Shown here piece after piece: positions 3,744 to 57,905 of a DNA stretch of 64,000 nucleotides. The translations under genes and the position numbers were made by a program. Source of the stretch: Octopus vulgaris (Eukaryota); assembly GCA_951406725.2 (NCBI GenBank), contig OX597835.1, positions 36,828,001-36,892,000 of the forward strand, read 5' to 3'. A model generated the notes under the pieces. It was not told the origin of the DNA and did no database searches. It worked only from the letters and a program-made list of their open reading frames with translations. The first letter of the stretch is position 1. Every line of letters begins with the position of its first letter.

Positions 3744-3764
3744 GTTATTATTATTATTATTATG

Positions 3765-6811: not shown

Positions 6812-6897
<86 letters not shown>

Positions 6898-6950
6898 TAC
6901 ATATAAGTAAATAAATGGAGTTGAACGCAGATGCTATTCAAATTCTTTTA

Positions 6951-7033
6951 CTTTCGACATATGTTTCGAAGACAACATTGGTTTTATTCCAAAGGAATAT
7001 ACCGTGTAAAATGCAATCATCTCATCAGGAAAG
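6951..7033 (-). ncRNA. Type I hammerhead ribozyme in a PLE pseudo-LTR fragment
   Basis: Minus strand: CTTTC-CTGATGA-(long imperfect stem II)-GAAA-C-ATAT-G-TC-GAAAG; homologous to the 3' end of the PLE at 15951-16091. Confidence 0.8.
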
Positions 7034-7235
7034 AAAGAGAACCTATCTCAACAACAAGATATTATAACAACTTTGATGACTGCATAAATGATAAACAGAA
7101 CACTATTAGGTATTTTAAAAAATAGTTAGTGGATTCGACATCAAAGGCTGACACTTGGAAGAGAAGGGGTAAAGAAATAACACACACTCGTACATATGTA
7201 TGTGTGTGTGTGTATATATATATATACATATATAT

Positions 7236-9669: not shown

Positions 9670-11020
9670 ATCTCTCTCTCTTCCTCCGTCTGTCTTGATA
9701 GACAATGGGTCACGCCATGGGTGGGGCCTACTTTGATGATGAGCAGCGTCTGCTGTGACTGAACAGTCCAATTCTAGAGTGGCAGTCCCTGGTACAGTTG
9801 CTGCACACGAACATCGATGGGTACGTGTGGGGTGTTGCTGCAGTTGTCCTCCTCCTGTCCCGCCTGTCCGACCACAGCTGTGCAATCCTTTCCTCAGCCA
9901 TGGAAACGCCTTTCCTCACTGTCCGACACCAGGCAGAGCGGTCAGCAGCTGTTACCTCCCACGTGTCCACACAGATGTTGGCAGTCCTCAGGTCGCGCTT
10001 GCACACATCCCTGTATCGTAGCTGTGGACGTCCCTTGGGTCGGGATCCCGTGGTGAGTTCGCTGTACAGGATGTCTTTAGGCATGCGACCGTCCTGCATG
10101 CGGCAGACGTGTCCGAGCCAGCGCAGTCGTCTCCGCACGAGGAGGGCATGCATGCTTGGCATATTAGTCTGTTCTAGGATGACTCCGTTTGGTACTCGGT
10201 CCTTCCAGGAGATGCCAAGGATCCGTCGAAGACACTGCATGTGGAAGCCGCTGAGGCGGCATTCTTGCCAGGTATATGTTGTCCAGCTCTCGCTGCTGTA
10301 GAGTAGGGTGCTCAGCACGCAGGCTCGGTACACTGCGATCTTGGTGGTTATTGTGAGCATGTTGTATTCCCACACTCTCCTGGAGAGCTTAGCCATGGCA
10401 GCAGCAGCCTTCCCAATCCGTCTGTTCAGCTCCGGCTCGAGGGACAGGCTGCTGGAGACCGTCGATCCCAGGTAAGTGAACTCGTTCACCACCTGCAAGC
10501 TGTGGTCGCCGACACTGATGCTGGGGACCCCTCCGACGTCCTGGCCCATGATCTCTGTCTTTTTCAGGCCGATGGTAAGGCCGAACTCTTGCCAGGGAGC
10601 TGACCAGCCTCTGGAGACCCAGCTGGTTGTGTGATGTTAGGGCGGCATCGTCAGCAAAGAGGATCTCTCTGATCAGCACCTGATGGACTTTGGTCTTAGT
10701 TCTGAGGCGCGCAAGATTGAACAATCCACCATCATCCCTGGTGTGGAGGAACACTCCGTTGTCGGACGTTCTGAAGGCATAGGACAGGACAAGGGAGAAG
10801 AAAATTCCGAAGAGCGTCGGCGCCAGAACGCAACCCTGTTTCACTCCACTCTGGATGGGGAATGACTCCGAGGGCGATCCGTCAAACTGCACTGTTCCCT
10901 GCATACCGTCGTGAAAAGAGGTGATGAGTTTCAGCAGTCTGGGAGGGCAACCTATCCTACCCAGGAGCGCAAACAGCCCCTCCCTGCTGACTGAGTCGAA
11001 CGCCTTAAGGCGTTCGACTC
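9670..11020 (-). mobile_element. 5'-truncated RTE (BovB-like) LINE, RT C-terminal half, inserted in (TA)n
   Basis: [25 protein letters not shown]; a frameshift leads to ORF 9728-10549 (FTYLGS, RRLRWLGHVCRM, C-terminal CxxC..H..C). Visibly more GC-rich than the flanks. Confidence 0.92.
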
Positions 11021-11021: not shown

Positions 11022-11142
11022 ATATATATATATATATATGTATGTATATATGTATGTATATATATATATATGTATATATATATGTATGTATATATATGTA
11101 TATATATATGTATATATATATGTATATATATATATGTATATA

Positions 11143-11195
<53 letters not shown>

Positions 11196-11498
11196 ATATA
11201 TATGTATATATATATATGTATATATATATATGTATATATATATGTATATATATATGTATATATGTATATGTATATATGTATATATATGTATATATGTATA
11301 TATAGATATGTATATATGTATATATATATATGTATATATATATGTATATATATATGTATATATATATATGTATATATGTATATGTATATATGTATATATA
11401 TGTATATATGTATCTATAGATATGTATATATGTATATATATATATGTATATATATATATGTATATATATATATGTATATATATATGTATATATATATG

Positions 11499-11529
<31 letters not shown>

Positions 11530-11531
11530 GT

Positions 11532-11565
<34 letters not shown>

Positions 11566-11676
11566 GTGTATATATATATATATATATATGTATGTATATA
11601 TATATATGTGTATATATATATATATATATGTGTATGTATATATATATATGTATGTATATATATATATATATGTATG

Positions 11677-11753
<77 letters not shown>

Positions 11754-11794
11754 GTATGTATATATATATGTATGTATATATATATATATGTATG

Positions 11795-11829
<35 letters not shown>

Positions 11830-11871
11830 GTATGTATATATATATATGTATATATATATATATGTATGTAT

Positions 11872-11905
<34 letters not shown>

Positions 11906-12136
11906 GTATATATATATATGTATGTATATATATATATATATATGTATGTATATATATATATATGTATGTATATATATATATATATGTATGTATATATATA
12001 TATGTATGTATATATATATATATGTATGTATATATATATATATATGTATGTATATATATATGTATGTATATATATATGTATGTATATATATATATATATG
12101 TATGTATATATATATGTATGTATATATATATGTATG

Positions 12137-12183
<47 letters not shown>

Positions 12184-12198
12184 ATATATATATGTATG

Positions 12199-12229
<31 letters not shown>

Positions 12230-12356
12230 GTATATATATATATGTATGTATATATATATATGTATGTATATATATATATATATGTATGTATATATATATA
12301 TGTATGTATATATATATATGTATGTATATATATATATGTATATATATATATGTATG

Positions 12357-12391
<35 letters not shown>

Positions 12392-12414
12392 GTATTATAT
12401 ATATATATATATAT
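11022..12414. repeat. About 1.4-kb compound (TA)n/(TATG) microsatellite
   Basis: Direct reading. Confidence 0.98.
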
Positions 12415-13177
12415 GCACACACACATGCACACACACATGCACACAATTACATATGTGTATGAATGTATACATGAGCACATGTATGGATATATGTGTGTAG
12501 AAATATATATGTCTGTATGTGTATGCAAATTTTTGGACTGAATTTTATATCTTCTCACAATCTCTTTCTGTTTAGCAGTCAAACTATGTGAAAAATAGAG
12601 TTTTCACATAACCCTTCCGTTTAAATTTTTCATCATGCATTTCGGAAAGAACTGTGTTTCCCTCTCTATAAAGAGATAAATCTCTGATTCAAAGTCAGTT
12701 TGATAAGTAAGCTACAAGAATGCTATTTTGGACTAATGTTGCTTCTGTTGCTAATACACGAATTTTTAATCCAACCTGCCAGGTAACTATAGCATCAGTA
12801 ATTTGTTATCACTGTGTTTCTATATCAGTAAAGGGTAAATTTGTCTTGGCATACAGTTGCTAGTAGATGCTTGCTATTGATGATGCTCAAAAATACAGAA
12901 ATACGTATTTAGCAATTCTACCACAGCCACTGCTGAAAATATTTCTATCTTTTTAACACTTGCTTCGCAACCACATGGTTCCAGGTTATATATATATATA
13001 GGCGCAGGAGTGGCTATGTGGCAAGTAGCTTGCTTGCCAACAACATGGTTCTGGGTTCAGTCCCACTGCATGGTACCTTGGGCAAGTGTCTTTTGCTATA
13101 GCCTCGGGCCGACCAAAGCCTTGTGAGTGGATTTGGTAGACAGCAACTCAAAGAAGCCCATCGTATATATATATATA

Positions 13178-13692
13178 CGGAAGGTAACTTTGTTGGTGCA
13201 ATCCCATGGTCATTCATAAACAAAGGGGGTCTTTGTCCTTTACCCTATGCACATATAATGATGTTGAGAGGGGAGGCTGGTATGCATGGACGACTGCTGG
13301 TCTTCCATAAACAACCTTGCCTGGACTTGTGCCTCGGAAGGTAACTTTGTTGGTGCAATCCCATGGTCATTCATGACCAAAGAGGGTCTTTACCCTTTAC
13401 CCTATGTACATATAGTGGCGTAGAGAGGGGAGGCTGGTATGCATGGACAACTGCTGGTCTTCCATAAACAACCTTGCCTGGACTTGTGCCTCGGAAGGTT
13501 ACTTTGTTGGTGCAATCCCATGGTCATTCATGACCAAAGAGGGTCTTTACCCTTTACCCCATGTACATATAGTGGCGTAGAGAGGGGAGGCTGGTATGCA
13601 TGGACAACTGCTGGTCTTCCATAAACAACTTTGCCTGGACTTGTGCCTCGGAAGGAAACTTTGTTGTGCAATCCCATGGTCATTCATGACCA
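13178..13692 (+). repeat. Tandem array of about 3.3 copies of a ~157-bp unit (probable SINE/LINE 3' end with TTTACCC tail)
   Basis: CGGAAGG(T)AACTTTGTTG recurs at about 13178, 13336, 13492 and 13649. Confidence 0.85.
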
Positions 13693-13995
13693 AAAGGTGG
13701 GGGTCTTCGATTTTTAAAGGGTTAAACAAAATTATAAGTACTGGGGTTGGATATGATCAACAAAAAGCCTTCATGATAGTGCCCCAGCATGGCTACACTA
13801 CAGTCATTGAAGCAAGGGCATTGAAACATAGGCACAGGAGTGGCTGTGTGGTAAGTAGCTAGCTAACCAACCGCATGGTTCCGGGTTCAGTCCCACTGCG
13901 TGGCATCTTGGGCAAGCGTCTTCTGCTATAGCCCTGGGCCGACCAAAGCCTTGTGAGTGGATTTGGCAGTCAGAAACTGAAAGAAGCCTGTCGTA

Positions 13996-14035
<40 letters not shown>

Positions 14036-14405
14036 GTATAGGAAAGAATGGAGATTTAACAAAATTCCTTTATTTTATTTTCGACATATGTTTCGAAGTC
14101 TGCAATATTTCACGTCGACATTTTTAAGCATAAAGCGGAATTCTATAATGCTGCCCTGTCAAAAGCTGGTTATAGGGAAAAGGTAACATATATAGACCTG
14201 GCCCTTCCGAAACCAGAATTTTCTCATCGGGATAAGTCAACTTACAATAATATAAATAATATAAGTAGTGATGGTAGCTTTAGTAATATCGACACAAGTA
14301 CAGCTAACACAAATATAGCTAACATAAATAATTTGCGGTCCAAGGGAGACCATCGTAGGCCAAAACCCATTATTCAACCCAGAGATGCCCCCCTTAATGT
14401 AAGAG

Positions 14406-15416
14406 TTGACTCTCCGAGCCAGTACTAGAACAGGAAAAAACTATATCTGGTTTGTGATTCCCTTTGGTAAACAAATCAGATCTAACCTACCGTTGCAGTT
14501 CCGCCAAGCCATTGCCAGAAATTTTCCCAGAAATTTGAGATATTACTCCACTATAAATTCGCACAAAGTAAGGATAGCTTTCTCAAATACTAAAAATCTT
14601 TCACAGATAATTGCCTCCCATAACATTAAGCTGCTAAATAAGGCCCTGTCACCCATGAGCAGAGACTCTGCCCCGTTAAATTCCAACATAAGATATAGTA
14701 ATAATAATAATAATAGAAGTAGCACAGATATTAGCAGCCTTCATACCAGCATTGGCGTTAGTAATAGTAATAAGGATAAGAGCACTGACCTCGTCATTAA
14801 CGGAGGGAGTCTCAACAATAATATTAGCAGCGGTTTTAACAACAGTAGTTTTACGGACATTATCAATCACAGCATTCCCAGAAACAGGGAATATGCAGGT
14901 GATATTGCCTTAAATAGTAATGATAATGGGGTGAATAGTATCGAATCCAGCGGTAGTTTTTACAACCATCATAGTAATAAGAACGCTGTATTAGTATCGG
15001 AAACTAATCCCAATAGAATAAGGTTCTTATCAAATAACTCCAAAATTAGAAACGCCATTTACCAGTGCAGAATTTATGCTGGATCCGATGTCTTCCTCTA
15101 TATCGGCGCTACATCATCTAAATTAGCCACAAGAATATCGAACCATTTTTCCACATTTAGGGATAAAAAGAAACAACACTCTACTGGGCTAAGCAAATTA
15201 GTCTGGCGTTTGAAGAACACGAATTCAACTTTTAGGCTGGAATGGTCAATATTATCGGTGACTTTACCGTTTGATAAGGGCAAAAAAATCTGTGCCCTAT
15301 GTAATTCCGAACTCTTTCATATTCTGTTTGCCCAAGGCCGACTAATAAACTCGATTGTGGAGAGTTCTTTCAGATGCCCACACTGGAAAAAGCATACCTT
15401 TTTCTCATACCAATGA
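14406..15416 (+). pseudogene. PLE C-terminal region with GIY-YIG endonuclease (truncated; the ORF start is not a real start)
   Basis: IWFVIPF...HN linker, NAIYQCRI...LYIGAT...RISNH, C..C..E, C-terminal CPH. Confidence 0.85.
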
Positions 15417-15950
15417 AGTCTAATATAGATAACCCCTGGATTTCCTAAAAAATTTGAAAGGTGATACCTCATCCCTGTTAGTATAAAAGACTTTCTCATA
15501 GTTGCCAAGAACTACTACCAATCCCAACAGTAACCTTGTATCTTGTCATTGCTATTGTGGCCGCCCTCTCCCTATTAAGTTGTCACATTCGAGCACACAG
15601 ACACAGTCTTTTCAGTTCTTGACCGTTAATTCTTGCTATCTCTCTCTCTCTGCATTCCACACACACTTTCACGCATTCAAAGACGCACACACACATACAT
15701 TAATTTTACACACTCATACATCCGAGCACTCATTTACAGAATACATTCACACTCTTTAATTTTCCTATACCTTCCTTCTACTACCTTAATGCTGCCCTTG
15801 AACTATCTCAACGGACAATTTCTTCTGCTTTCATCCAATCTGGCGTCAACCTCTATAAATAGACATTTTTTATCATTATTTTTATGGGCTCCTCGTGAGC
15901 AGTCGTCGAAAAGCTTGTTGTGCATTTTGTTGGAGAATTAAGATCCTGGT

Positions 15951-16034
15951 TTTTCCTGAAGAGGAAGCTGCATAATGGACTCCTTATTCACTCGGAATTA
16001 GGAACTTTGCAGACTTCAAAACATATGTCGAAAA
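15951..16034 (+). ncRNA. Type I hammerhead ribozyme of the PLE pLTR (G12 mutated to A in this copy)
   Basis: TTTTC-CTGAAGA-G-GAAGCTGCA...TGCAGACTTC-AAAA-C-ATAT-G-TC-GAAAA; the inverted copy near 14080-14105 retains GAAA. Confidence 0.8.
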
Positions 16035-16357
16035 TAAAATAAAGGAATTTTGTTAAATCTTCGTTCAGCTCCATTCTTTCCTATACTTAATATATAAAAC
16101 TTCAAATTTCCGCACTAAGGCACGGATTTTATGCCCTATGGTCGTAACTTCAACCGTGCCCTTTCTGTTGTGAGTTTGCTAACCAGGTATCGGTTATCTT
16201 TCGAATTATCCATAATAAAATAATTCACTTGTCTACTTAAATATATATATATATATTTATTTTATAGAAGGAGCTTCTATAAAATAAATTAATTTACTCT
16301 GCCATGTATTGAGTACCTTATTTACTGTGGTTAACCCCGACTCAACCCAGGGCCTAC

Positions 16358-16405
<48 letters not shown>

Positions 16406-17004
16406 TTGTCCCCCTAGCATTGCTTGACAACCGATGCTAGTGTGTTTATGTCCCCGTCACTTAGCGGTTCGGCAAAAAAGAGACTGATAGAATAAGTACT
16501 GGGCTTACAAAAAAGAATAAGTCCCGCAGTCGATTTGCTCGACTAAAGGCGGTGCTCCAGCATGGCCGCAGTCAAATGACTGAAACAAGTAAAAGAGAAA
16601 AGAGAGTAAGGGAAAGATGAGAGATAAAAGCTATATAAATTCCCTGTGTTTCAGGGATTATATACTCCATTGAAGCTTGGTGTTATTCTTGTCAGAAACA
16701 ATAAGCTGCCCAGTTTAATTCTCCTCGTTTGCACCAGATTCATTTCGTTAAGTATCTTTTATATTTCCTCGCATCAACTAAATTGCAAGATCCTGACTGA
16801 ATAGTGTTCAGCACTCCTTGTTCTCTGCCTACAATATATTGTATAGGTGCGAGTGTGTGTGTGCGTGTGAGCGTGTGTCTGTGTGTGTGTGAAAATACAT
16901 GCGTGTTTGTATGTCTGTGTGCCAGTGTTTAAAAATACACATGAGCATGTATCTGTGTGTGAGTATAATTATATATATATATATATATTTCTATGTATAT
17001 ATGG

Positions 17005-17076
<72 letters not shown>

Positions 17077-17206
17077 AGAGAGAGAGAGAGAGAGAGATAA
17101 ATAGATATATAGATATAGATATATATATTTATGTATGTATATATGTATGTATGTATATCTATATATCTATCTATATCTATATACACATATACATATACTT
17201 ATATGC

Positions 17207-17237
<31 letters not shown>

Positions 17238-17284
17238 CACTCACACACACATACACAAACACACACATATATATATAAATATAT

Positions 17285-17358
<74 letters not shown>

Positions 17359-17748
17359 TATATGCACATGTGTGTGCAGGAGTCCAGTGAACTTGCCATG
17401 GAGAGTGGAAAATCCTATGTTTTATAAAGAGTTTTTCCCCCGGAGCAAAGTCGACAGTAGAGAAATTAATGAGAAACGGCAGAATTTTACATCTGCTAAG
17501 AATTTAACTCTTTCTCATTAATTAATTTCTCCCCTGTCAACTTCTCCCTGACAAACGACTGTCCGAAACGGTGGATTTTCAACTCCTTACAGTAAGTTTC
17601 CTGCACTTGTTTTATTAATTTTCTACACACATACATGTATGTGTGTCTATACACACATATACATATATGTGTGTATATGTACACACACACACACTTACAC
17701 ACATGTACATGCATGCGTCTCTCTCTTTTCATGACACACACACACACA

Positions 17749-17923
17749 CTCTTTTACTTGTTTTAGTCATTTGACTGTGGCCATGCTGGAGGAACACCTT
17801 TTAGTTGAGCAAATCGACCCCAGGACTTATTCTTTGTAAGCCTAGTACTTATTCTATCGCTTTCTTTTGCGCTAAGTTATGGTTGTCAAACGATGTTGCG
17901 GGGACAAACACAGACACACAAAC

Positions 17924-18000
<77 letters not shown>

Positions 18001-18160
18001 GGACTTCTTTCAGTTTCCGTCTACCAAATCCACTCACAAGGCTTTGGTCAGCCTGAGAGCTATAGTAGAAGACACTTGCCCAAGGTGCCATGCATAGGAC
18101 TGAACTCGGAACCATGTGGTTGGTAAGCAAGTTACTTACCACACAGCCACTCCTACGCCT
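17749..18160 (-). mobile_element. Family-A SINE
   Basis: Head, internal (TA)n and tail as in other copies (internal deletion). Confidence 0.85.
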
Positions 18161-18214
18161 AAAATATATATATATATATATATATATATTTGTAATATAT
18201 ATATATATGTATAA

Positions 18215-18245
<31 letters not shown>

Positions 18246-18365
18246 ACCCATGCTAGCATGGTGAACGGATGTTAAACGATGATGATGATATATATATATA
18301 TATATAACATTATTGGTGAATTGAAGAAATGGAGCTGAACTACAAGATTATTCATCTTTCTATTT

Positions 18366-19519
<1,154 letters not shown>

Positions 19520-19685
19520 AAAAAAAATATATATATCTATATATATTACGGAGATGTACTTGCATAGCAAGTGATTTGATCTGGATCGAGTGCTGAAACG
19601 AAAACAATTGCAGCATGGAAGGTGTTTGTAAGTCATTTAAGAAACACACAAAAGCCGTTCGATTCACTTCAACATTTAAGTTTAA

Positions 19686-19736
19686 TTTGTCAAAATATTT
19701 TCGTCGCTTTAAGACCGCGACCTGTTCACTGACAAA
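19686..19736 (-). ncRNA. Minimal type I hammerhead, G3:C8 variant
   Basis: TTTGTCA-GTGAACA-G-GTCGC-loop-GCGAC-GAAA-ATAT-TT-TGACAAA. Confidence 0.75.
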
Positions 19737-19771
19737 AATCCGTGCTGCATCCGTGAGATGCAGCACGGATT

Positions 19772-19822
19772 TTTGTCAGTGAACAGGTCGCAGTCTTAAA
19801 GCGACGAAAATATTTTGACAAA
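19772..19822 (+). ncRNA. Minimal type I hammerhead, G3:C8 variant
   Basis: Same motif on the plus strand in the other arm. Confidence 0.75.
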
Positions 19823-19903
19823 TTAAACTTAAATGTTGAAGTGAATCGAACGGCTTTTGTGTGTTTCTTAAATGGCTTACAAACACCTTCCACGCTGCAA
19901 TTG

Positions 19904-19945
<42 letters not shown>

Positions 19946-20173
19946 ACTATGAAGATATTTAGACCTCTTAGTGGGATGTTTTTATCCAAGATACACTAGT
20001 TTATATATTGTATTTTTGAACAGATATTTCTTCAATGAACACATTACGTAAAATATCATAAAATATCAAATATTATCATTAAATTTGGAAATGGAGAGAT
20101 ATAATGGATACAAATTAATTTATCAATTTGTATCCATTATATCTCTCTGAAAATTTTATAATTATATACACAT

Positions 20174-20210
<37 letters not shown>

Positions 20211-20214
<4 letters not shown>

Positions 20215-20406
20215 ACTGTTGGCGATTTTTTCGCTCGTCTTCCCTTCTCTGGATCTTTCCTTTTCCTATGTTTCTGACGAAGAGCTCCGCTCGAAACGTT
20301 AAACCCTCCTTCTTCCCTTCCTTCCTGAGCATCCAATAATACTATATTTGTTCCATGTCCTCACACTGTTGCGTTTTCTCTTTGTGTTTTCATGTTTGGA
20401 TTCACT
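20211..20406 (+). mobile_element. Solo PLE pseudo-LTR-like unit in (TA)n
   Basis: About 195-bp unit between TA arrays, containing a canonical minimal hammerhead. Confidence 0.7.
20270..20304 (+). ncRNA. Minimal type I hammerhead ribozyme (canonical C3:G8)
   Basis: GTTT-CTGACGA-A-GAGC-TCC-GCTC-GAAACGT-T-AAAC; palindromic ACGT helix III. Confidence 0.85.
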
Positions 20407-21145
20407 ATATATATATATATATATGCTCCGATGGATGTGTAATGTCAGTGTGCAAGCTCAACAGAGTGTAAGTACCTTGAGAGAAAAGTTGGACCTAAGA
20501 AACAGGAGATAGGATACTTGTGAGAGTCCAAATATGGCCAGTTTGAAGATAAAACAATTAGAAAATTTTGGCTAGATGTGGTCGGTTTAACGCTAAAAGG
20601 GTAAAGAATGTGAAGCATTCTGCTCTGTTCATTTTGGGAGAATGACAGCCTTTCTAGTTCTTTATGCAGATCTGTTGTTATGTAGCCCTCAGCTCCGATG
20701 ATTATAGCTAAATAAAAAATCTATAGCCTGAATATAAGAGCTGTAGGTTTCTCATTCATTCTCCATAGATGTTTTCCTGTTTGCCAATTTTTCCACTAAA
20801 CTTTCCTACCCGACCAGCAGAGCTGCCAGTCATTACAACAGAACATGATTTTTGCTTCTTGATCCATAGAGCAATATTTGATTGTATTGGGTTGCTCTCT
20901 TCATTGGAAAGTTCCATTGATGTTCTTCATTCTCAAATGTGTGGGTGCATTCCCATTTTGGTATACCTTTCATATGGCCATCAAGACAATCTTACCTACG
21001 GATAGTGTGCATGTGTGTGTGTGTGTTTGAGTGTGTGCACATGTGTATGCATGTTCTCCACCCTGGAAATACAGGATGTGACTGGTAATATCTACATGCA
21101 TACTTATATGTGTGTGTGTGTATGTTTTTATATATATATATATAT

Positions 21146-21373
21146 TTCGTTATTGTCCACAGGGGGCTAAACGCAGAGGGGTCAAACAAGGACAGACAAA
21201 CGGATTAAGTCAATTATATCGACCCCAGTACGTAACTGGTACTTAATTTATCGACCCCGAAAGGATGAAAGGCAAAGTCGACCTCGGTGGAATTTGAACT
21301 CAGAATGTAACGGCAGATGAAATGCCGCTTAGCATTTCGCCCGGCATGCTAATGATTCTGCCAGTTCACCGCC
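21146..21373 (-). mobile_element. SINE family C (Nin-domain-like core)
   Basis: Minus strand GGCGGTGAACTGGCAGAATC head, GAGTTCAAATTCC B-box and GCCTTTCATCCTTTCGGGGTCGATAAATTAAGTACCAG core. Confidence 0.75.
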
Positions 21374-21434
21374 CTAATATACAAATGCATATTTACATAC
21401 ATACATATATATATAATATATATATATATACATA

Positions 21435-23942
21435 TGGTGGTGGAACACTGTAGTTGACAGGGCTATTAGACAAAAGAGACAGGCTTGGAAGGACTGGAAG
21501 AACGGTGGTAGCAGGGAATTGTATCAGACAGCCAGAAGGGAAGCTAGGAGACAGGTTTATTTAGCCAGAGGGGAAGCGGATAAGAAAAAATTTGCCAATG
21601 TTCTGAGCCATGAGGATGAAAGACTTGAGGTATTTCGTGTTGCAAGACAGTGTGTGAGAGAGAATCGTGATGTGGTAGGAGAGAAGTGTGTTCGCATGGA
21701 TGATGGTTCACTTGTGCTAAATGAGTATGCAAAGAGAGAGGTTTGGAGATGCCACTATGAAAGGTTGCTGAATAAAGAAAATGAATGGGATAAAGAGTGT
21801 CTGCCGAATGTCAACCCAACAGAGCATGAAGACAGGGAAAGCCCCAGGCCCATCAGGAATTACTGCAGAGATGCTCAAAATATCTGGCAGTGTCGGCTAT
21901 AACCTAGTCACCCGTATAGTCAACCAGGTGATACACGAAGGAGTCATACCCAATGACTGGTGTAGCAGCATACTAGTCAACTGCTACAAAGGTAAAGGTG
22001 ATGCCCTGGATACAAATAATTACAGAGGTATCAAGCTGTTGGATCAGGTAATGAAGGTTACGGAGAGGGTCATAGCCCAACTAATTAGAGAGAGAGTTAG
22101 TTTAGATGAGATGCAGTTTGGGTTGTCCCAGGGAAAAGCACCACTGATGCTATATTCCTGGTAAGGCAGCTGCAGGAGAAACACCTAGCCAAGGATAAGC
22201 CCTTGTACCTGGCTTTCGTTGACATGGAGAAAGCTTTTGATAGGGTCCCCCGATCCCTCATCTGGTGGTCAATGAGGAAACTAGGGATAGATGAATGGCT
22301 GGTGAGGGCTGTGCAAGCCATGTACAGAGATGCCGTAAGTAAGGTTAGGATTGGCAACATGTACACAGAAGAATTCAAAGTAGAGGTTGGGGTCCACCAG
22401 GGTTCAGTACTCAGCCCCCTCCTATTTATCATAGTCCTCCAGGCAATTACGGAGGAATTCAAGACAGGTTGCCCCTGGGAGCTCCTCTACGCTGACGACC
22501 TTGCTCTAATTGCTGAGTCACTATCAGAACTGGAGGAGAAGTTCCAGGTGTGGAAGGAGGGTTTAGAATCGAGGGGCCTTAGAGTCAACCTAGCTAAAAC
22601 CAAAGTACTAATAAGTAGGAAGGTAGACAATCCACAAATGTCTTCAGGAAGATGGCCCTGCTCGATCTGTAGAAAAGGTGTAGGTAGAAACTCTATAAGA
22701 TGTACCCAGTGTAAGCTATGGACACTAAGAGGTGCAGCAATGTCAAAGGTAGGCTAACTGGGAAGATAGTTTTTGTATGTGGCAGATGCTTGGGAGCATT
22801 AACCTCCGAAAATCTGCAGAAAACAACTTCCGTCACTTTCCAGGGGAAAAACTAGAAGTAGTTGATAGCTTCCGTTATCTAGGTGACCAAGTCAGTAGTG
22901 GGGGTGGGTGCGCTGAAAGTGTAACTGCTAGAATAAGAATAGCCTGGGCAAAGTTTAGGGAGCTCTTACCTCTGCTGGTGACTAAAGGCCTCTCGCTCAG
23001 AGTAAAAGGCAGACTGTATGATGCATGTGTACGAACAGCCATGCTACAAGGCAGTGAAACATGGGCCGTGACTGCTGAGGACATGCGTAAGCTCGTGAGG
23101 AATGAAGCCAGTATGCTCCGATGGATGTGTAATGTCAGTGTACATACTCGACAGAGCGTTAGTACCTTGAGAGAAATGTTGTACCTAAGAAGCATCAGTT
23201 GTGGTGTGCAAGAGAGACGATTGCGCTGGTATGGTCATGTGGTGAGAATGGATGAAGATAGGTGTGTGAGAAAGTGCCAATCCCTAGCAGTTGAGGGAAC
23301 CCGTGGAAGAGGTAGACCCAGGAAAACCTGGGACGAGGTGGTGAAGCACGACCTTTGAACTTTAGGCCTCACTGAGGAAATGACCAGCGACCGAGACCTT
23401 TGGAAATATGCTGTACGTGAGAAGACCAGGCAGGACAAGTGAGCCCAGCCCACTTATGAATGCCTTTCCTCCCTTGGACACAAAGACCTGTTGAGGCAAG
23501 CGAAGTCAGTATAGAACCTCATCCGACGACAGGCACCCATGCCAACCCCCTTTGCTTGCGAAGACATGTTGGGTCAAGCGAAATAGAAATCGAATTGAAC
23601 CAGCCAGGATCCCTGGTCTGGTGGTACGTAAAAAGCACTATCCGACTCGTGGCCGATGCCAGCGCCGCCTCGACTGGCTTCCGTGCCGGTGGCACATAAA
23701 ATACACCAATCCGACCATGGCCGTTGCCAGCCTCGCCTGGCACCTGTGCAGGTGGCACGTAAAAAGCACCCACTACACTCACGGAGTGGTTGGCGTTAGG
23801 AAGGGCATCCAGCTGTAGAAACATTGCCAGATAAGACTGGAGCCTGGTGCAGCCTTCTGGCTTCCCAGATCCCCGGTCGAACCGTCCAACCCATGCTAGC
23901 ATGGAGAACGGACGTTAAACGATGATGATGATGATGATGATG

Positions 23943-23943
<1 letters not shown>
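21435..23943 (+). mobile_element. 5'-truncated RTE-clade LINE with RT, 3' UTR and (GAT)n tail; frameshifted
   Basis: Consecutive ORFs: GKAPGPSGI, NYRGIKLL, FVDMEKAFDRVPR, GVHQGSVLSP, LLYADD, FRYLG, RRLRWYGHV, GRPRKTW. Confidence 0.93.
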
Positions 23944-23973
<30 letters not shown>

Positions 23974-24259
23974 CGTTTATGAATTTGTGTTGCAAGATTC
24001 CTGATGTGAAGCGATGTGTTGAAACAAATATTGTTATATTTTGAGATGGTTATTTTTTTTTTTTTTGCCAAATAAACACATGCATTATATATTCGTTCTT
24101 CACTCATTTATTCCTGTTCTTATTCCTCATGTCCATTGTCTGGAAATCTTTCATCACACATCTGTGACCTCCTCAGCAACAAATCTATATCTGTATGTAT
24201 ATAAAACAAATCTATATCTGTATGTATGTATATATATATATAAAACAAATCTATATATG

Positions 24260-28579: not shown

Positions 28580-30160
<1,581 letters not shown>

Positions 30161-30884: not shown

Positions 30885-30890
<6 letters not shown>

Positions 30891-31416
30891 TATTAAAATT
30901 ACTAAGTCTCTCTAAAAGAGAACAACGGCAGCGTTCCCGGAAAATAATAGTTATCGCCATACTAATATGGCATTCTTATAAAAATAAGAATAAAGCTGAC
31001 CGCTTATTAGCTCCATGAGGCCATCGCCTTAAGTTAGCTATTTGATACACAAACTGTATCCATATAAACTTCGAACAAGGAAGGTCAGTCGCTCCACACT
31101 ACTTGACCGGCAGCTACAGACGCGTTTCGGGGTATTGCCCCTTTTCAATGCAGCGTAGCCAGACCAGTAGGTGTCGCTTCTGACAATCTCTGTTCGAAGG
31201 TTTTATTTACCTAGCTTCGGTGGAATACATCCACTTGTTTTCAATAATAGAAATATTAAAATTACTAAGTCTCTCTAAAAGAGAACAACAGCAGCGTTCC
31301 CGGAAAATAATAGTTATCGCCATACTAATATGGCATTCTTATAAAAATAAGAATAAAGCTGTCCGCTTATTAGCTCCATGAGGCCATCGCCTTAAGTTAG
31401 CTATTTGATACACAAA
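30885..31416 (-). mobile_element. Hammerhead-bearing ~363-nt unit in 1.46 tandem copies (retrozyme / non-autonomous PLE-like)
   Basis: 169-bp direct repeat 30885-31053 / 31248-31416 (period 363); hammerhead in the unique part; starts at a (TA)n array. Confidence 0.8.
31113..31154 (-). ncRNA. Minimal type I hammerhead, U3:A8 variant
   Basis: GCTGCA-TTGAAAA-GGGG-CAATA-CCCC-GAAA-CGCG-TC-TGTAGC; all three helices pair. Confidence 0.8.
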
Positions 31417-32738: not shown

Positions 32739-33340
32739 GAAATTATTGTATACAGTGCTCAAGTGCACCACAACTTGTCAAAAGTGCGTATAAAGTATAT
32801 GCAGTAATGCACAAATGTCTGGAAACCGAACAGTGTATGAGTCAGATACATGCTTGCGTGTGTATGGAGGGGAGAAAATCAGGTGTAGTGTTGGCGAATC
32901 TCAGGAAGCATGGAAGTTTTGAAGGATGCAGTGCTCCAACAACTAACAACCGATGCCAGCAGTTTGTTCCATGCTTCAGCAGCTCTTAGCGTGAAAAAAT
33001 GTTTCCGAAAGTCATGGGAGCTGTGCTGTTTTCAGACTTTGTAAACATATCCACAGGTGTTAGACAGGTGGAGTTTGAAAAGGTGCTCAGAGTTTCTTCT
33101 GTTTTTAATTATTTAAATTCTACCTTTGAGGAAGGATGCAGTGCTCCGACAACTAACAACTGATGCCAGCAGTTTGTTCCATGCTTCAGCAACTCTTAGT
33201 GTGAAAAAATGTTTCCGAAAGTCATGGGAGCTGTGCTGTTTTCTGACTTTGTAAACATGTCCACGGGTGTTAGACAGGTGGAGTTTGAAAAGGTGCTCAG
33301 AGTTTCTTCTGTTTTTAATTATTTAAATTCTACCTTTGAG
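32738..33340 (-). mobile_element. CR1-like LINE 3' end with a 210-bp tandem duplication
   Basis: Matches 46882-47210; GAAGGATGCAGTGCTCC occurs at 32921 and 33131. Confidence 0.75.
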
Positions 33341-33594
33341 GAAGGAATTGATTTCTAACAAAGATACAAAGCTTCATCCTTCAAACGTAAATAACAAAAG
33401 CAATGTCACATTCTAAACTTGAGAAAACTCTTGCATATTTTTACTGTTTCACTTACAGATTTTTTTTTAACGTATGAGTCAAATGGTTGATTTCTTTTTC
33501 TGAAAACCCTACTTTATCCAGCTTGTCACTTAGACATTTACTCACAAAACCAAGTGCATAAATTATTATTGGTATAAATGTGAATATATTTATT

Positions 33595-34629: not shown

Positions 34630-34672
<43 letters not shown>

Positions 34673-34679
<7 letters not shown>

Positions 34680-35251
34680 GTTGTATACTGTCAATCTAAC
34701 AAGAACGTGACAGTAGGGGGTACACCACCGTTGTATAGCCCTAGGAGGCATCGAACGCCTCCTGACAGCTTCGACACATTTTTTTCCCTGTGTCCTTATA
34801 TACATATACGAAGGGGAGACAAACACCCCTGGCCGTCGGAACTGCATCTAGGGACACCGTGTTTCAGGATCATTGTCCTTCATCGGCCTAGAGTAGCAGA
34901 CACCGGTCGGCTGGTGATATTTGCCTCGACTTCATAACTGTATATATGTATACTCAGTGAAGTTTATTCACTGATTATCAAAATAAGAAATATTGAATTT
35001 CTAAATCTCTCGTAGAGACATGTACGGTGGTGGGGCGATAGAATGGTTGTATACTCCCCTTCGTATATGTATATAAGGACACAGGAAAAAAAATGTGTCG
35101 AAGCTGTCAGGAGGCGTTCGATGCCTCCTAGGGCTATACAACGGTGGTGTACCCCCTACTGTCACGTTCTTGTTAGATTGACAGTATACAACCATTCTAT
35201 CGCCCCCACCACCGTACATCTCTCTACAAGAGATTTAGAAATTCAATATTT

Positions 35252-35255
<4 letters not shown>
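34673..35255. mobile_element. Hammerhead-bearing ~366-nt unit plus an inverted partial copy spanning the unit junction, in (TA)n
   Basis: AGAATGGTTGTATAC repeats with period 366; 35054-35255 is the inverse of 34984-35054 joined to 34689-34818. Confidence 0.8.
34848..34891 (-). ncRNA. Type I hammerhead-like motif (CCGATGA core)
   Basis: CTAGG-CCGATGA-AGGA-CAATGA-TCCT-GAAA-CACGGTG-TC-CCTAG. Confidence 0.65.
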
Positions 35256-35282
<27 letters not shown>

Positions 35283-35292
<10 letters not shown>

Positions 35293-35533
35293 TTAGAGAC
35301 AAAACAAATAAAGAAAGACTTAATCCAATACATAAAAAATTTTATATAAATTAAATATAATTAATATTATATTTAATTTATATAAAATTTTTTATGTATT
35401 GGATTAAGTCTTTCTTTATTTGATTTGCATAATAGTGGTTTTGTCTCTAATTAATATTATATTATATTTTACTATAAAATTGGATTCAATCCTAAATCTG
35501 ATTTTTCCCTGTAAATTTGGATTTATTCCCTAA

Positions 35534-35538
<5 letters not shown>
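35283..35538. repeat. AT-rich fold-back palindrome (about 35283-35460) with a ~78-nt unpaired tail, in (TA)n
   Basis: AAATAAAGAAAGACTTAATCCAATACATAAAAAA... is mirrored around about 35362. Confidence 0.8.
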
Positions 35539-35577
<39 letters not shown>

Positions 35578-49597: not shown

Positions 49598-49823
49598 GTA
49601 ATGATTATGATGGTGGTGATGGTGGCAGCAGCGGTGGTGTTGCTACTGCTGCTGCTGCTCTTGACACCTGTTTCTTGTACTTTTTCAGACTCCCTATGTG
49701 TTCACATATATACATTCACATTTATCTATGTATATATATATATAATTGCAGCGTGGGAGGTGTTTATAAGCCATTTAAGAAACACACAAAAGCCGTTCGA
49801 TTCACTCCAACATTTGAGTTTAA

Positions 49824-49873
49824 TTTGTCAAAATATTTTCGTCGCTAAAATCCGCGACCTGTTCACTGACAAA
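49824..49873 (-). ncRNA. Minimal type I hammerhead, G3:C8 variant (left arm)
   Basis: Reverse complement of 53783-53832. Confidence 0.75.
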
Positions 49874-50837
49874 GTCCGTGCTGCATCTAAGAAAGTAACA
49901 GTTAGTTCGTCATATATATGTATGTACGTATGTATGTGTGTATGTACGCATACATGTGTGTATGTATGTACGTATTCATGTCCGCACATACGCCTGTGTA
50001 TGCATGTATGTATGTATGTATGTATATATGTATGTGTGTGTATAAGCACGCACATACACTCTATAAAACATAAAGTTATAAACCTGTAGCGATGGATGGA
50101 TGTAGAGTGACCACTCATCACAACGCTATCAAATTTCAACTCCCTACGGCCGAGGCTAGAAAGTGAATTTATGACGCTTGCTCACAAGAACTATACCCTC
50201 AAATCTATTATCAGATTTTTATCTCTATATCACAGAACTAATGTTTTACTATTGTTCGTATGTATGTATGTATGTATGTGCGTATGTATGTATGTATGTA
50301 TGTATGTATGTATGTATGTATGTATGTATGTACATACGTACGCATGTGCGTATGTATGTATACGCGCCCGTATGCATGTGCCCATGTATGTGTGTGTGTA
50401 CATGTACGTGCGTATGTACGTGTGTATGCCCATACGTAGGTATGTATGTATGTTTGTATTCATGTGCTACGTATGTATGTGAGTGTCTAGGAGAATGGGC
50501 AGATGTGTCCGTGAGAGTGTGTACATGTGTATGTGTATGTGAACGTATGTCCGTGTACTGGCATGTGTCCGTCCAAGTTGTGTACATGACTGTTACTTAG
50601 CTGAAGGTTGTATACATATTTACATATATGTTTGTATAGACGCACACACATATATATATATGTGTGTGGGTGTGTGTTTGTTCCTCTCATCGTCGTCTAA
50701 CCGTGAATGGGTACAACGCCTAGGTGCGACTGTTCGTATCAAACAACGTCTGCTCATACCGTTGTATATAACTGCACATACGCATTGCAACCTGTATGTA
50801 AGGACTACAGGTGAAAGGGAGAGAGAGAGAGGGGTGG

Positions 50838-51737
50838 TTATAGAATAGTCCTTCTGAATGGGATCTGGATGTTATTCCATTCGGACTTTCGGTTGAGAGT
50901 AGGTTTGTATTCTTGTATACAAACAGCTTCTGTGACCTGTCTCAACATTGCATCGGTGGGATGTGTAGATAGGATGTTCAACTTAAGCTCCCCTAAGGAT
51001 CCCTTGTGGCAGTCTACAGCATGTTGGTAGAAGATGGAGTTTGGCTTCCTTTCAATGTAGTTGTCCAGGTGTTCTTTGAACCTATCATTGATGCTTCTAG
51101 AGGTCTCACCTATGTATGACTCCGGGTTAGCCGCGCAAGCTCCCTCCTGGCACTTAATCTGGTATACAGTGCCCTTGGTTTTACAATTTACGTGTGGATT
51201 TGTCGAACACACTGCACAATTACTCTGACAGGTGATTCTATCAAATGGATATGATCTGCATAATGCCGATTTGATAGTCCTACCTGTCTTTTCTACAACT
51301 TTAACTTTTAGGCCCGTAGTGCGCAGGACTTTCTTGAATGCCTTACTTAGCTCGTTCATAGGTGTGGCGTCAACGAACATCACTCCGTGAAATCTCCTGT
51401 TATCGTACCAAGTAACGTTTCTCATCTTTTTGTTGGTGTCCCTCTCTAACCTATTCCAGAACTTGTTGCGGTACAGGGGGCATATACCGTTTTCGTCGTT
51501 CCCTAGAATGCGTTCGAATCTAGCTTTCGCTCCTTTGTACACCCTGACTCTATCGTCTTGTGTGTATCCGGAACGTTGCATTCGGAATATGTAGTGCTGG
51601 ATGTGTTGTTGTCGTTCTTGTGGTTGGCATAGTGGTGATACATTCCTCATTACTCTAACTAAGTCTGCCACTAGGATGTTGAGTTTGGCAGTATCCGACA
51701 CAGCTGAGTCACTACGGATTACTAGTGGATTAGCCAT
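50838..51737 (-). CDS. PLE C-terminal fragment: RT thumb + Cys-rich linker + GIY-YIG endonuclease (Naiad-like by motif)
   Basis: (HYQKP)MANPLVI..., C...CAVC...NCKTKGTVYQIKC...YIGETSRS...RF.EH...RQVTEAV.I....P.LN.K.EW. Confidence 0.85.
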   Translation of the reverse strand: MANPLVIRSDSAVSDTAKLNILVADLVRVMRNVSPLCQPQERQQHIQHYIFRMQRSGYTQDDRVRVYKGAKARFERILGNDENGICPLYRNKFWNRLERDTNKKMRNVTWYDNRRFHGVMFVDATPMNELSKAFKKVLRTTGLKVKVVEKTGRTIKSALCRSYPFDRITCQSNCAVCSTNPHVNCKTKGTVYQIKCQEGACAANPESYIGETSRSINDRFKEHLDNYIERKPNSIFYQHAVDCHKGSLGELKLNILSTHPTDAMLRQVTEAVCIQEYKPTLNRKSEWNNIQIPFRRTIL

Positions 51738-51915
51738 CGGTTTCTGATAGTGTGAGTGGAGTATACATGGTTTAATGTGAGTTTAGTGTGAGTGGAGTAT
51801 ACATGGTTTAATGGTACCATTAACTATAGTTAATGGTACCATTAAACCATGTATACTCCACTCACACTAAACTCACATTAAACCATGTATACTCCACTCA
51901 CACTATCAGAAACCG

Positions 51916-52815
51916 ATGGCTAATCCACTAGTAATCCGTAGTGACTCAGCTGTGTCGGATACTGCCAAACTCAACATCCTAGTGGCAGACTTAGTTAGAG
52001 TAATGAGGAATGTATCACCACTATGCCAACCACAAGAACGACAACAACACATCCAGCACTACATATTCCGAATGCAACGTTCCGGATACACACAAGACGA
52101 TAGAGTCAGGGTGTACAAAGGAGCGAAAGCTAGATTCGAACGCATTCTAGGGAACGACGAAAACGGTATATGCCCCCTGTACCGCAACAAGTTCTGGAAT
52201 AGGTTAGAGAGGGACACCAACAAAAAGATGAGAAACGTTACTTGGTACGATAACAGGAGATTTCACGGAGTGATGTTCGTTGACGCCACACCTATGAACG
52301 AGCTAAGTAAGGCATTCAAGAAAGTCCTGCGCACTACGGGCCTAAAAGTTAAAGTTGTAGAAAAGACAGGTAGGACTATCAAATCGGCATTATGCAGATC
52401 ATATCCATTTGATAGAATCACCTGTCAGAGTAATTGTGCAGTGTGTTCGACAAATCCACACGTAAATTGTAAAACCAAGGGCACTGTATACCAGATTAAG
52501 TGCCAGGAGGGAGCTTGCGCGGCTAACCCGGAGTCATACATAGGTGAGACCTCTAGAAGCATCAATGATAGGTTCAAAGAACACCTGGACAACTACATTG
52601 AAAGGAAGCCAAACTCCATCTTCTACCAACATGCTGTAGACTGCCACAAGGGATCCTTAGGGGAGCTTAAGTTGAACATCCTATCTACACATCCCACCGA
52701 TGCAATGTTGAGACAGGTCACAGAAGCTGTTTGTATACAAGAATACAAACCTACTCTCAACCGAAAGTCCGAATGGAATAACATCCAGATCCCATTCAGA
52801 AGGACTATTCTATAA
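51916..52815 (+). CDS. PLE C-terminal fragment: RT thumb + Cys-rich linker + GIY-YIG endonuclease (identical second copy)
   Basis: Same 299-aa translation as 50838-51737; uninterrupted frame; the RT catalytic core is absent. Confidence 0.85.
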   Translation: MANPLVIRSDSAVSDTAKLNILVADLVRVMRNVSPLCQPQERQQHIQHYIFRMQRSGYTQDDRVRVYKGAKARFERILGNDENGICPLYRNKFWNRLERDTNKKMRNVTWYDNRRFHGVMFVDATPMNELSKAFKKVLRTTGLKVKVVEKTGRTIKSALCRSYPFDRITCQSNCAVCSTNPHVNCKTKGTVYQIKCQEGACAANPESYIGETSRSINDRFKEHLDNYIERKPNSIFYQHAVDCHKGSLGELKLNILSTHPTDAMLRQVTEAVCIQEYKPTLNRKSEWNNIQIPFRRTIL

Positions 52816-53782
52816 CCACCCCCTCTCTCTCTCCCTTTCACCTGTAGTCCTTACATACAGGTTGCAATGCGTATGTGCAGTTATATACAACGGTATGAGC
52901 AGACGTTGTTTGATACGAACAGTCGCACCTAGGCGTTGTACCCATTCACGGTTAGACGACGATGAGAGGAACAAACACACACCCACACACATATATATAT
53001 ATGTGTGTGCGTCTATACAAACATATATGTAAATATGTATACAACCTTCAGCTAAGTAACAGTCATGTACACAACTTGGACGGACACATGCCAGTACACG
53101 GACATACGTTCACATACACATACACATGTACACACTCTCACGGACACATCTGCCCATTCTCCTAGACACTCACATACATACGTAGCACATGAATACAAAC
53201 ATACATACATACCTACGTATGGGCATACACACGTACATACGCACGTACATGTACACACACACATACATGGGCACATGCATACGGGCGCGTATACATACAT
53301 ACGCACATGCGTACGTATGTACATACATACATACATACATACATACATACATACATACATACATACATACATACGCACATACATACATACATACATACGA
53401 ACAATAGTAAAACATTAGTTCTGTGATATAGAGATAAAAATCTGATAATAGATTTGAGGGTATAGTTCTTGTGAGCAAGCGTCATAAATTCACTTTCTAG
53501 CCTCGGCCGTAGGGAGTTGAAATTTGATAGCGTTGTGATGAGTGGTCACTCTACATCCATCCATCGCTACAGGTTTATAACTTTATGTTTTATAGAGTGT
53601 ATGTGCGTGCTTATACACACACATACATATATACATACATACATACATACATGCATACACAGGCGTATGTGCGGACATGAATACGTACATACATACACAC
53701 ATGTATGCGTACATACACACATACATACGTACATACATATATATGACGAACTAACTGTTACTTTCTTAGATGCAGCACGGAC

Positions 53783-53832
53783 TTTGTCAGTGAACAGGTC
53801 GCGGATTTTAGCGACGAAAATATTTTGACAAA
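53783..53832 (+). ncRNA. Minimal type I hammerhead, G3:C8 variant (right arm, 3' pLTR)
   Basis: TTTGTCA-GTGAACA-G-GTCGC-GGATTTTA-GCGAC-GAAA-ATAT-TT-TGACAAA, sense to the ORF. Confidence 0.78.
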
Positions 53833-53969
53833 TTAAACTCAAATGTTGGAGTGAATCGAACGGCTTTTGTGTGTTTCTTAAATGGCTTATAAACACCTCC
53901 CACGCTGCAATTGTTTTCGTTTCAGCACACGATCTCAGATCAAATTACTTGCTATGCGAGTACATCTCC

Positions 53970-54027
<58 letters not shown>

Positions 54028-57171: not shown

Positions 57172-57905
57172 AAGGTGATGAGTTAACAGAATCGTTAGCA
57201 CGTTTCGTCTGCCTTTACATTCTGAGCTCAAATTCCGCCAAGGTCGACTTTGCCTTTCATCCTTTCGGGGGTCGATAAATTAAGTACCAGTTATGCACTG
57301 GGTCGATATAATCGATTTAACCCCTTTGTCTGTCCTTGTTTGTCCCTTCTGTGTTTAGCCCCTTGTGGGTAGTAAAGAAATAGGTATTTCGTCCGCCGTT
57401 ATGTTCAGAGTTCAAATTTTGCCAAGGTCAACTTTGCCTTTCATCCTTTCAGGGTCAATAAATTAAGTACCAGTTATGCACTGGTAGTAATAATGTAATC
57501 GATTTAACCCTTTTGTCTGTCCTTGTCCTTGTTTGTCCCCTCTATGTTTAGCCCTTTGTGGGCAATAAAGAAATAAGAATCGTTAGTACGCTGGGCAAAA
57601 TGTGGAGGCACATGGCCTAGTGGTTAGAGCAGTGGACTCACGGTCGAGGGATCGCGGGTTCGAATCTCAGACTGGGCGATGTGTGTGTTTATGAGCGAAA
57701 ACACCTAAGCTCCACACGGCTCCGGCAGAAGGCAGTGGTGAACTTCTGCTGACTCTTTCGCCTCAACTTTCTCTCACTCTTTCCTCCTGCATCTTGCAGC
57801 TCACCTGCGATGGGCCGGCGTCCCATCCAGGTGGGGAACCTATACGCCAAGAAACCAGGAAACTGGCCCTTATGAGCTAGGGATGACTCGAGAAGGAACA
57901 AACAA
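57172..57905 (+). mobile_element. Tandem family-C SINE units followed by a family-B SINE (57603-57905)
   Basis: Two Nin-like cores; the family-B copy interrupts a third unit and is flanked by CGCTGGGCAAAATG on both sides. Confidence 0.8.

Follow-up and report, generated by a model that had tools for sequence, protein, structure and literature searches.

A 366-nt hammerhead element of the octopus genome with the insertion ends of a Penelope-like element: a probable non-LTR retrozyme

Introduction

Within the 64,000-nt stretch of Octopus vulgaris DNA analysed here (the window), positions 34673-35253 hold a non-coding element with a unit of 366 nt and a type I hammerhead on the minus strand. The element consists of two 5'-truncated copies joined head to head within (TA)n, and a tail is found at one end only. 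What kind of element is this, and what machinery could have left it in such a form?

Concerning the mobility of hammerhead elements in animals, Penelope-like elements (PLEs) have been put forward as strong candidate movers of retrozymes (Cervera and de la Pena 2020, PMC7229834). In vertebrates, the link between retrozymes and PLEs has been drawn from co-occurrence and pLTR trees, in an account that leaves the mechanism open (Li, Clavereau and Pollet 2026, bioRxiv 10.64898/2026.07.22.740005). PLE insertions are described as displaying partial tandems, an inverted 5'-truncated copy, a tail of 30-40 bp that is often present at one end only, and a bias towards (TA)n (Craig et al. 2021, PMC8557442). 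Biochemical work on a PLE protein has shown cutting and extension of both strands of AT-rich DNA in vitro (Frangieh et al. 2024, PMC11167929). According to the same report, synthesis is initiated within the RNA at two sites, the distance between which corresponds to the tail, and requires RNA beyond these start sites, while hammerhead cleavage is dispensable and uncut RNA is used. Here we describe the locus and propose, with a probability that we put at roughly 0.85, that it is a copy of a non-autonomous non-LTR retrozyme mobilised by a PLE protein.

Results

Anatomy of the element

Unit positions are numbered from the AGAAATATT terminus, and the features are collected in Table 1. The period of 366 nt given in an initial annotation was confirmed by an 18-nt direct repeat (34672-34689 and 35038-35055), and the right end of the element, placed there at 35255, was corrected to 35253. 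The RNA sense of the left arm is the minus strand, and that of the right arm the plus strand. In the hammerhead sense, the 3' ends of both arms point outward (that of the left arm to the left), and the last 53 nt are present only on the right one. The right arm does not include the hammerhead, ending 33 nt before the cut site. The inverted segments (34672-34818 and 35054-35200) are 147 nt long and 99% identical (146/147 nt). Both outer ends of the element sit in (TA)n, with microhomologies of 2-3 nt at the junctions. As the target is (TA)n, a target-site duplication is unreadable.

The inverted copy had been described as crossing the unit junction. The right piece actually begins at the true junction and comprises unit positions 1-200, and it is the left arm that runs across a true junction (34985/34986). 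What had been called the permutation point is position 53/54, where the left piece, the arm without the 53-nt tail, starts; it is not the unit junction.

The only stop-free frames of at least 120 aa that overlap the unit lie for the most part in the microsatellites on either side, and we recognized no protein coding in the unit. An ORF with RT and GIY-YIG endonuclease was not found in the 366-nt unit, and the element was therefore not filed as an autonomous PLE. Immediately to the right, between TA tracts, lies an AT-rich segment with an internal inverted repeat (35290-35540), possibly another head-to-head 3'-end insertion; no second copy of it was found within the window.

We examined the possibility that the two arms are independent insertions into one (TA)n tract, or the product of later DNA rearrangement or mis-assembly. 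The (TA)n tracts of the window do gather many insertions, and the stretch covered by aligned contigs ends at the inversion junction (35055), so that the contigs do not span it. However, the arms are not separated by (TA)n and have outward-facing 3' ends, the 146 of 147 identical nucleotides include family-minority letters, and another family has two further cases of this geometry in the window. We therefore regard this explanation as very improbable, and take the two arms as parts of one insertion of the retrozyme.

Table 1. Coordinates of the element, its sister element and the PLE-like elements in the window
Feature	Positions	Strand	Remarks
Left (TA)n target	34630-34674		Final 2-3 bases common to the left end of the element
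Left arm, 383 nt	34673-35055	-	Unit positions 54-366, then 1-70 of the next unit
Long imperfect stem with the hammerhead at its tip	34790-34953	-	From self-BLAST and circular fold
Type I hammerhead	34842-34899	-	From folds, descriptor and comparison with the sister unit
Hairpin directly 3' (RNA sense) of the terminus	34954-34975	-	Same position in the 363-nt unit
True unit junction	34985-34986		Loose ends of other copies before 34986; homologous junction at 31248/31249
Internal copy of the 53-nt tail	34986-35038	-	Terminal motif and UCUCU/AGAGA hairpin
Inversion junction	35054-35055		2-nt microhomology; links both 5'-truncated ends
Right arm, 200 nt	35054-35253	+	Unit positions 200 to 1; ends at (TA)n with the whole tail
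Right (TA)n target	35254-35289
Sister element	30886-31416	-	363-nt unit and 168-nt 5'-truncated repeat (2 mismatches); terminus at (TA)n
Sister hammerhead	about 31108-31161	-	Core UUGAAAA (U3:A8); palindromic helix III
5'-truncated PLE-like element	14026-16240		GIY-YIG-like frame 14403-15416; inverted 5' piece 14026-14105
Short head-to-head pair	19549-19905		3' end of the same family as 49744-53970; one side tailed, the other without about 55 nt
4.2-kb palindrome	49744-53970		99.8%, between TA tracts; arms are 5'-truncated PLE-like elements

A sister family in the window

The 366-nt unit and the 363-nt unit of the sister element are homologous from end to end, with about 55% identity (210/382 columns, divided as 37/56 and 173/326). 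The global score of the whole units was 192, against 65±12 for shuffled sequences, and after removal of the first 45 nt it was 142 against 54±11; neither value was reached in 1000 shuffles. In terms of the terminal motif, a gapped comparison gave a score of 43 (7.6±5.9 in dinucleotide shuffles, reached in 0/5000), and among 7326 prefiltered window positions only the two elements exceeded a score of 31. The similarity between the termini, which the initial annotation had claimed and proposed to set against shuffled controls, is thus well above them. An ungapped comparison of the 26-nt motif was not significant (15/26, a value that 200/200 shuffled motifs matched somewhere in the window), because the two motifs differ by a 1-nt gap. 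In both elements the motif abuts (TA)n at the outer terminus, as had been noted (30886 and 35253), but the internal copy at 34986 does not.

A short hairpin reported beside the motif was found in both units, with the 5 compared pairs beginning 14 nt from the terminus in each. The distance from the predicted cut site to the terminus is also the same, 233 nt. The notion of a diverged family that keeps its size, ribozyme and 3' terminal region agrees well with these units of 366 and 363 nt, which both carry hammerheads at 55% identity.

The hammerhead and the folded RNA

A hammerhead of the same strand sense had been noted in both units, and our models gave a type I fold on the minus strand for each. 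In the 366-nt unit, helix I is composed of 6 bp, a UAC/U internal loop and 4 bp, helix II of 4 bp, and helix III is short. The core is CCGAUGA with C at position 4 (U4C; C3 is 34886 and C4 is 34885), and the GAAA box lies at 34865-34862. The loop of helix II is CAAUGA here and is either CAAUGA or CAAUA across the two units. Cleavage is predicted to occur after C 34853.

The structural alignment of the two units kept all 27 compared pairs, in the hammerhead and two hairpins near the terminus: 17 were identical, 2 had a change on one side, 8 had changes on both sides and 0 were broken, counts that come from two sequences with the helices placed by hand from the folds. Controls in which the alignment was slid kept 10-15 of the 27 pairs. 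The 3-8 core pair also covaries, being C:G in one unit and U:A in the other. A hammerhead descriptor matched the window twice, in these two units, and had 0 matches in 40/40 shuffled windows; this was not a blind test, since the descriptor was written after both cores had been seen. It had no match in the window's tandem repeats of period 157 (13178-13694), 210 (32921-33346) and 184 (57203-57575). Four local Rfam scans of both units, including scans of 71-nt stretches at E values up to 10, gave no hammerhead, nor did an Rfam search of the whole window among the best 150 of the 271 matches listed, all dominated by microsatellites.

The circular fold of the 366-nt unit had a free energy of -129.3 kcal/mol (z -8.75, 0/60 shuffles), and that of the 363-nt unit a z of -7.6 (0/60 shuffles). 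The opposite strand of the 366-nt unit also folds well (z -4.25).

Both core variants have precedents. U4C is reported to reduce in vitro activity considerably without abolishing the infectivity of a viroid (PMC3088659), and U3:A8 is a described variant in PLEs of Schistosoma (PMC4209133). On account of the lowered activity reported for U4C, the ribozyme of the 366-nt family may be weak or dead.

Other copies of the family and their core

The stretch was present in 20 of 24 listed public runs, representing 9 studies and 4 organism codes. Four runs (X1, X4, X9 and X18) were examined, throughout as contigs, with 2189, 1697, 159 and 40 aligned contigs, respectively, and an aligned stretch that ended at 35055. 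None of the runs with the stretch is recorded as RNA, and these contigs carry no information on expression, strand or circles. By identity, the X1 contigs fell into bands of 642 (99% or more), 730 (95-99%), 626 (90-95%) and 191 (under 90%). The initial annotation had made its proposal depend on other genomic copies, and many diverged ones are present in the contigs of these runs. Contig depth, which is cited below, is not a copy number. An exact 26-nt core pattern had 0 matches in metagenome contigs.

Unrelated AT-rich loose ends were found before 34986 in at least 12 contigs of X1 and at least 14 of X4, indicating that the AGAAATATT terminus recurs among copies. Depth was 104,693 (X1) and 153,342 (X4) at 34985, and 271,366 and 382,044 at 34995. 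Diverged contigs (records 24, 29 and 30) bridge the hammerhead stem and the junction side (34885-34983). Together with the depth at 34985, this indicates that the unit junction also recurs at that distance from the hammerhead.

These data bear on a further possibility, that both units are pLTR remnants of autonomous PLEs, formed by 5' truncation and a subsequent jump to another 3' end, and that no independent short element exists. PLEs do have type I hammerheads in their pLTRs and most of their copies are truncated (PMC8557442, PMC4209133), the depth in X1 falls upstream of the hammerhead (from about 300,000 at the core to 13,000-24,000 at 34922-34947), where some contigs also part from the reference, with loose ends at 34900, 34908 and 34933. 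On the other hand, such remnants would not readily account for the depth at 34985 or for the diverged contigs that bridge 34885-34983. The junction lies at a homologous place in two families that are only 55% alike, with a conserved hairpin alongside, and the helices of 6 and 4 bp are canonical for retrozymes, whereas the minimal PLE type, seen at 15956, has a long helix II. We consider a pLTR origin unlikely, and favour a short retrozyme with a unit of its own.

We examined whether CCGATGA is common to the family or specific to this copy. No variant row fell within 34837-34914 among the best 40 of the 55 listed, at a depth of about 300,000 in X1; the rows outside these 40 include two G>A places in X1. 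As the smallest top share among the listed variant rows was about 21%, the canonical U4 appears to be a minority at most and CCGAUGA the majority core of the family. Letters private to the 34673-35253 copy were recognizable elsewhere, with the contigs differing at 53-99% at 34731, 34747, 34766, 34830, 34836, 34934, 34938 and 34953. Record 16 of X18, which belongs to another organism code, spans 34780-34894 with 2 other letters that match the rows at 34830 and 34836, and its core is therefore the same. Deletion of 1 nt at 34857 was seen at 0.1% of depth in X1, 15% in X4, 27% in X9 and 68% in X18; it turns helix III into a perfect palindrome, the dimer-type form seen in the sister unit. When 27 family variants were placed on the fold of the single copy, 9 kept a pair, 4 broke one and 14 lay at unpaired positions, a split that says nothing for or against the fold. 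Both arms of the element share the minority letters at 34731 and 34747, which is expected because the arms would derive from one source.

Several other signals were considered. Depth at positions 69-94 relative to positions 2-53 was about 2-fold in X1 and about 1.3-1.8-fold in X4, with no excess in X9 and X18. This step was set aside as a sign of a second end at position 54, owing to its absence from two runs and to depth being no copy number. Loose ends at 34954 were likewise set aside as a third terminus, a variable subfamily segment fitting equally well, and a joint in X18 from 35040 back to 34675 is only the ordinary continuation of the unit. Two single contigs of X18 have strand-switch joints within the unit (34786/34818 and 34894/34951), probably other inverted insertions of the 366-nt family; one of the joints ends at 34818, the same place as the inversion in 34673-35253.

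The insertion footprint and PLE-like elements in the window

The locus combines a partial tandem (70 nt, and 168 nt in the sister element), an adjacent inverted 5'-truncated copy, a one-sided tail of 53 nt and a microsatellite, AT-rich target, all features of the PLE footprint; the tail is longer than the 30-40 nt given in the PLE papers. The window itself provides an internal control for this footprint, as a family with a GIY-YIG-like ORF displays the one-tailed head-to-head form twice (49744-53970 and 19549-19905). Each arm of the palindrome has a GIY-YIG-like frame of 314 aa, one arm is without the last 58 nt, and the tail-less ends of the two head-to-head structures fall at the same place. 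Extra short repeats lie at the centre of the palindrome (about 51780-51870).

A third PLE-like element (14026-16240) carries a hammerhead, from 15956, of the minimal type, with a long helix II, a palindromic helix III and a GAAA box with a single change. The 3' region of this element has a 66% relative at 6893-7083. The PLE-like ORFs of the window scored 19.5 and 22.3 bits with Pfam GIY-YIG, just under the cut-off of 22.6. Among 921 candidates, 18 homologues of the ORF at 51871 were 571-1045 aa long, one of them labelled an RT-domain protein. Pfam searches with 4 of these 18 gave one weak RVT_1 match, in the RT-domain-labelled protein, and none in the other three. One homologue, 51% identical, is annotated as an Octopus vulgaris protein. 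A PDB search with one PLE ORF of the window gave 0 matches. The 3' regions of the window's PLEs had no similarity to either retrozyme unit, and the autonomous partner was thus not identified among them.

We also considered a SINE-like element moved by a LINE, with the inversion arising by twin priming of the LINE type. RTE and other LINE pieces, among them RT fragments, are present in the window, and the junctions have microhomologies of 2-3 nt. However, the element has no poly(A) or simple-repeat tail of its own, its arms have 147 nt in common and only one has the tail, an arrangement also seen in the window's PLE pairs, and partial tandems together with a hammerhead are PLE traits (PMC8557442, PMC4209133). 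LINE mobilisation is, in our estimate, extremely improbable, and we retain a PLE protein as the mobilising agent. The LINE-type RT fragments lie at 1963-3821, 9728-11000 and 21417-23358, and very long TA-rich tracts are found near LINE fragments (11022-12414, 18369-19487 and 28800-29998).

The following course of events would account for the structure. Tandem copies would be transcribed into an RNA longer than one unit. This RNA would fold into a strongly paired form in which a long stem bears the type I hammerhead at its end, as the fold and covariation suggest, self-cleavage being putative. A PLE RT/GIY-YIG protein would bind the structured RNA that lies downstream of the hammerhead cut site, at a distance of about 180-250 nt, and nick both (TA)n strands, and the RT would start inside the RNA at positions 1 and 54, which are 53 nt apart; for this step we draw on the ends of this single insertion and the PLE biochemistry in PMC11167929. 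The resulting cDNAs of 200 and 383 nt would be joined at their truncated ends over the 2-nt microhomology that is observed in the junction sequence. Two cDNAs with different starts, joined in this manner, would produce a head-to-head structure with a tail on one side. The supposed permutation point would then be the second RT start site. The terminal motif had been interpreted as a 3' RT-recognition motif, a reasonable inference; it is better read as an internal RT start site, one of two, flanked on either side by conserved structure. The conservation of a hairpin 14 nt past the terminus would be expected if initiation is internal.

The template of the long cDNA

The left arm of 383 nt crosses both the predicted cut site and the unit junction, and its template was therefore longer than one unit. 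A circular or tandem template had previously been proposed. The length of the left arm bears this out, but the argument then given, that the inverted piece reads through the permutation point, shows nothing, because every copy that starts at the terminus does so. In our judgement the template was somewhat more probably an uncut multimer; a circle is the less probable but still serious candidate, and two RNAs bridged by a template jump would be a rather unlikely source. Uncut RNA is slightly favoured because of the probably slow U4C ribozyme and the anole PLE result. The arms differ at 3/53 positions in the distal part of the left arm and at 1/147 in the shared part, a difference too weak to choose multimer over circle (Fisher p 0.058). 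Junction reads, for their part, cannot prove a circle, since closure at the hammerhead site would give a circle that is indistinguishable in sequence from tandem DNA. Copying of more than a unit from circles has already been proposed both for PLEs (PMC4209133) and for retrozymes (PMC7229834).

Discussion

The 366-nt family resembles the animal non-LTR retrozymes (PMC7229834; bioRxiv 10.64898/2026.07.22.740005) in its non-coding unit, which is 150-450 nt long in those elements and 350-390 nt in mussel, its type I hammerhead with a short helix III, its strong self-pairing, its many copies and the presence of PLEs in the genome. With a unit of 366 nt (363 nt in the sister), a type I fold and no coding capacity, and being multicopy and self-paired, the 366-nt family has the attributes of a retrozyme; this likeness is one of sequence and predicted fold, cleavage and circles being putative. 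The two families differ from the retrozymes described in that core variants are found in both (U4C and U3:A8) and that the copies here are dispersed ones of 1-1.5 units and form no array. An active retrozyme has been defined as two consecutive units, each with a complete hammerhead (bioRxiv 10.64898/2026.07.22.740005). As 34673-35253 contains one hammerhead only, it is, by this rule of Li et al. 2026 and judging from its sequence, a dispersed derivative and no active array. We therefore classify the 366-nt family as a new family of non-LTR retrozyme, a known kind of element, and not as a new class.

With PLEs that have an endonuclease (PMC8557442, PMC11167929), the element shares the partial tandem, the inverted 5'-truncated copy, the tail at one end, the (TA)n target and a hammerhead upstream of the RT start region. 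It differs from them in having no ORF in the unit and a tail of 53 nt rather than 30-40 nt, and the proposed RT starts, 180 and 233 nt downstream of the cut site, are further away than in the anole PLE. PLE dependence is read here from the insertion ends, whereas the two retrozyme studies argue, in the accounts cited, from co-occurrence and pLTR similarity. Among hammerhead core variants (Cervera and de la Pena 2014, PMC4209133; Perreault et al. 2011, PMC3088659), U3:A8 is known from Schistosoma PLEs and U4C occurs naturally in a viroid. In contrast to the viroid case, U4C is here apparently the state of most copies in an animal family of high copy number, and an indel in helix III produces a perfect palindrome in part of the copies.

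Among the papers listed on octopus hammerheads and retrozymes, cephalopod Penelope, U4C hammerheads and internal initiation in retrozymes, none was seen to describe this family, a U4C core shared by a whole family or a retrozyme with PLE tails, although the supplements of PMC7229834 and PMC4209133 or repeat libraries may list such motifs. The main text of the 2026 repeat annotation of Octopus vulgaris (PMC13282606) contains neither 'ribozyme' nor 'retrozyme'. Standard hammerhead searches miss such families because of their apparently family-wide U4C core.

The retrozyme at 34673-35253 displays PLE-specific ends, namely two starts, a one-sided tail and arms joined head to head within (TA)n, and the link between retrozymes and PLEs becomes directly testable with an RNA of 366 nt. 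The two sister families show which RNA features persisted over about 45% divergence. As a tentative and rather doubtful extension, the hammerheads might be deliberately weak (U4C in one family, U3:A8 and a dimer-type helix III in the other) and held at a fixed distance of 233 nt from the cut to the RT start, with the PLE protein that binds the start region also controlling the cut. Uncut multimers or circles would then serve as templates, and the ribozyme and the RT-start structure would form one measured unit. If this were true, the two families together would provide a compact natural substrate with which to test RNA recognition by PLE proteins in trans, and could reveal what hammerheads of the PLE type are for.
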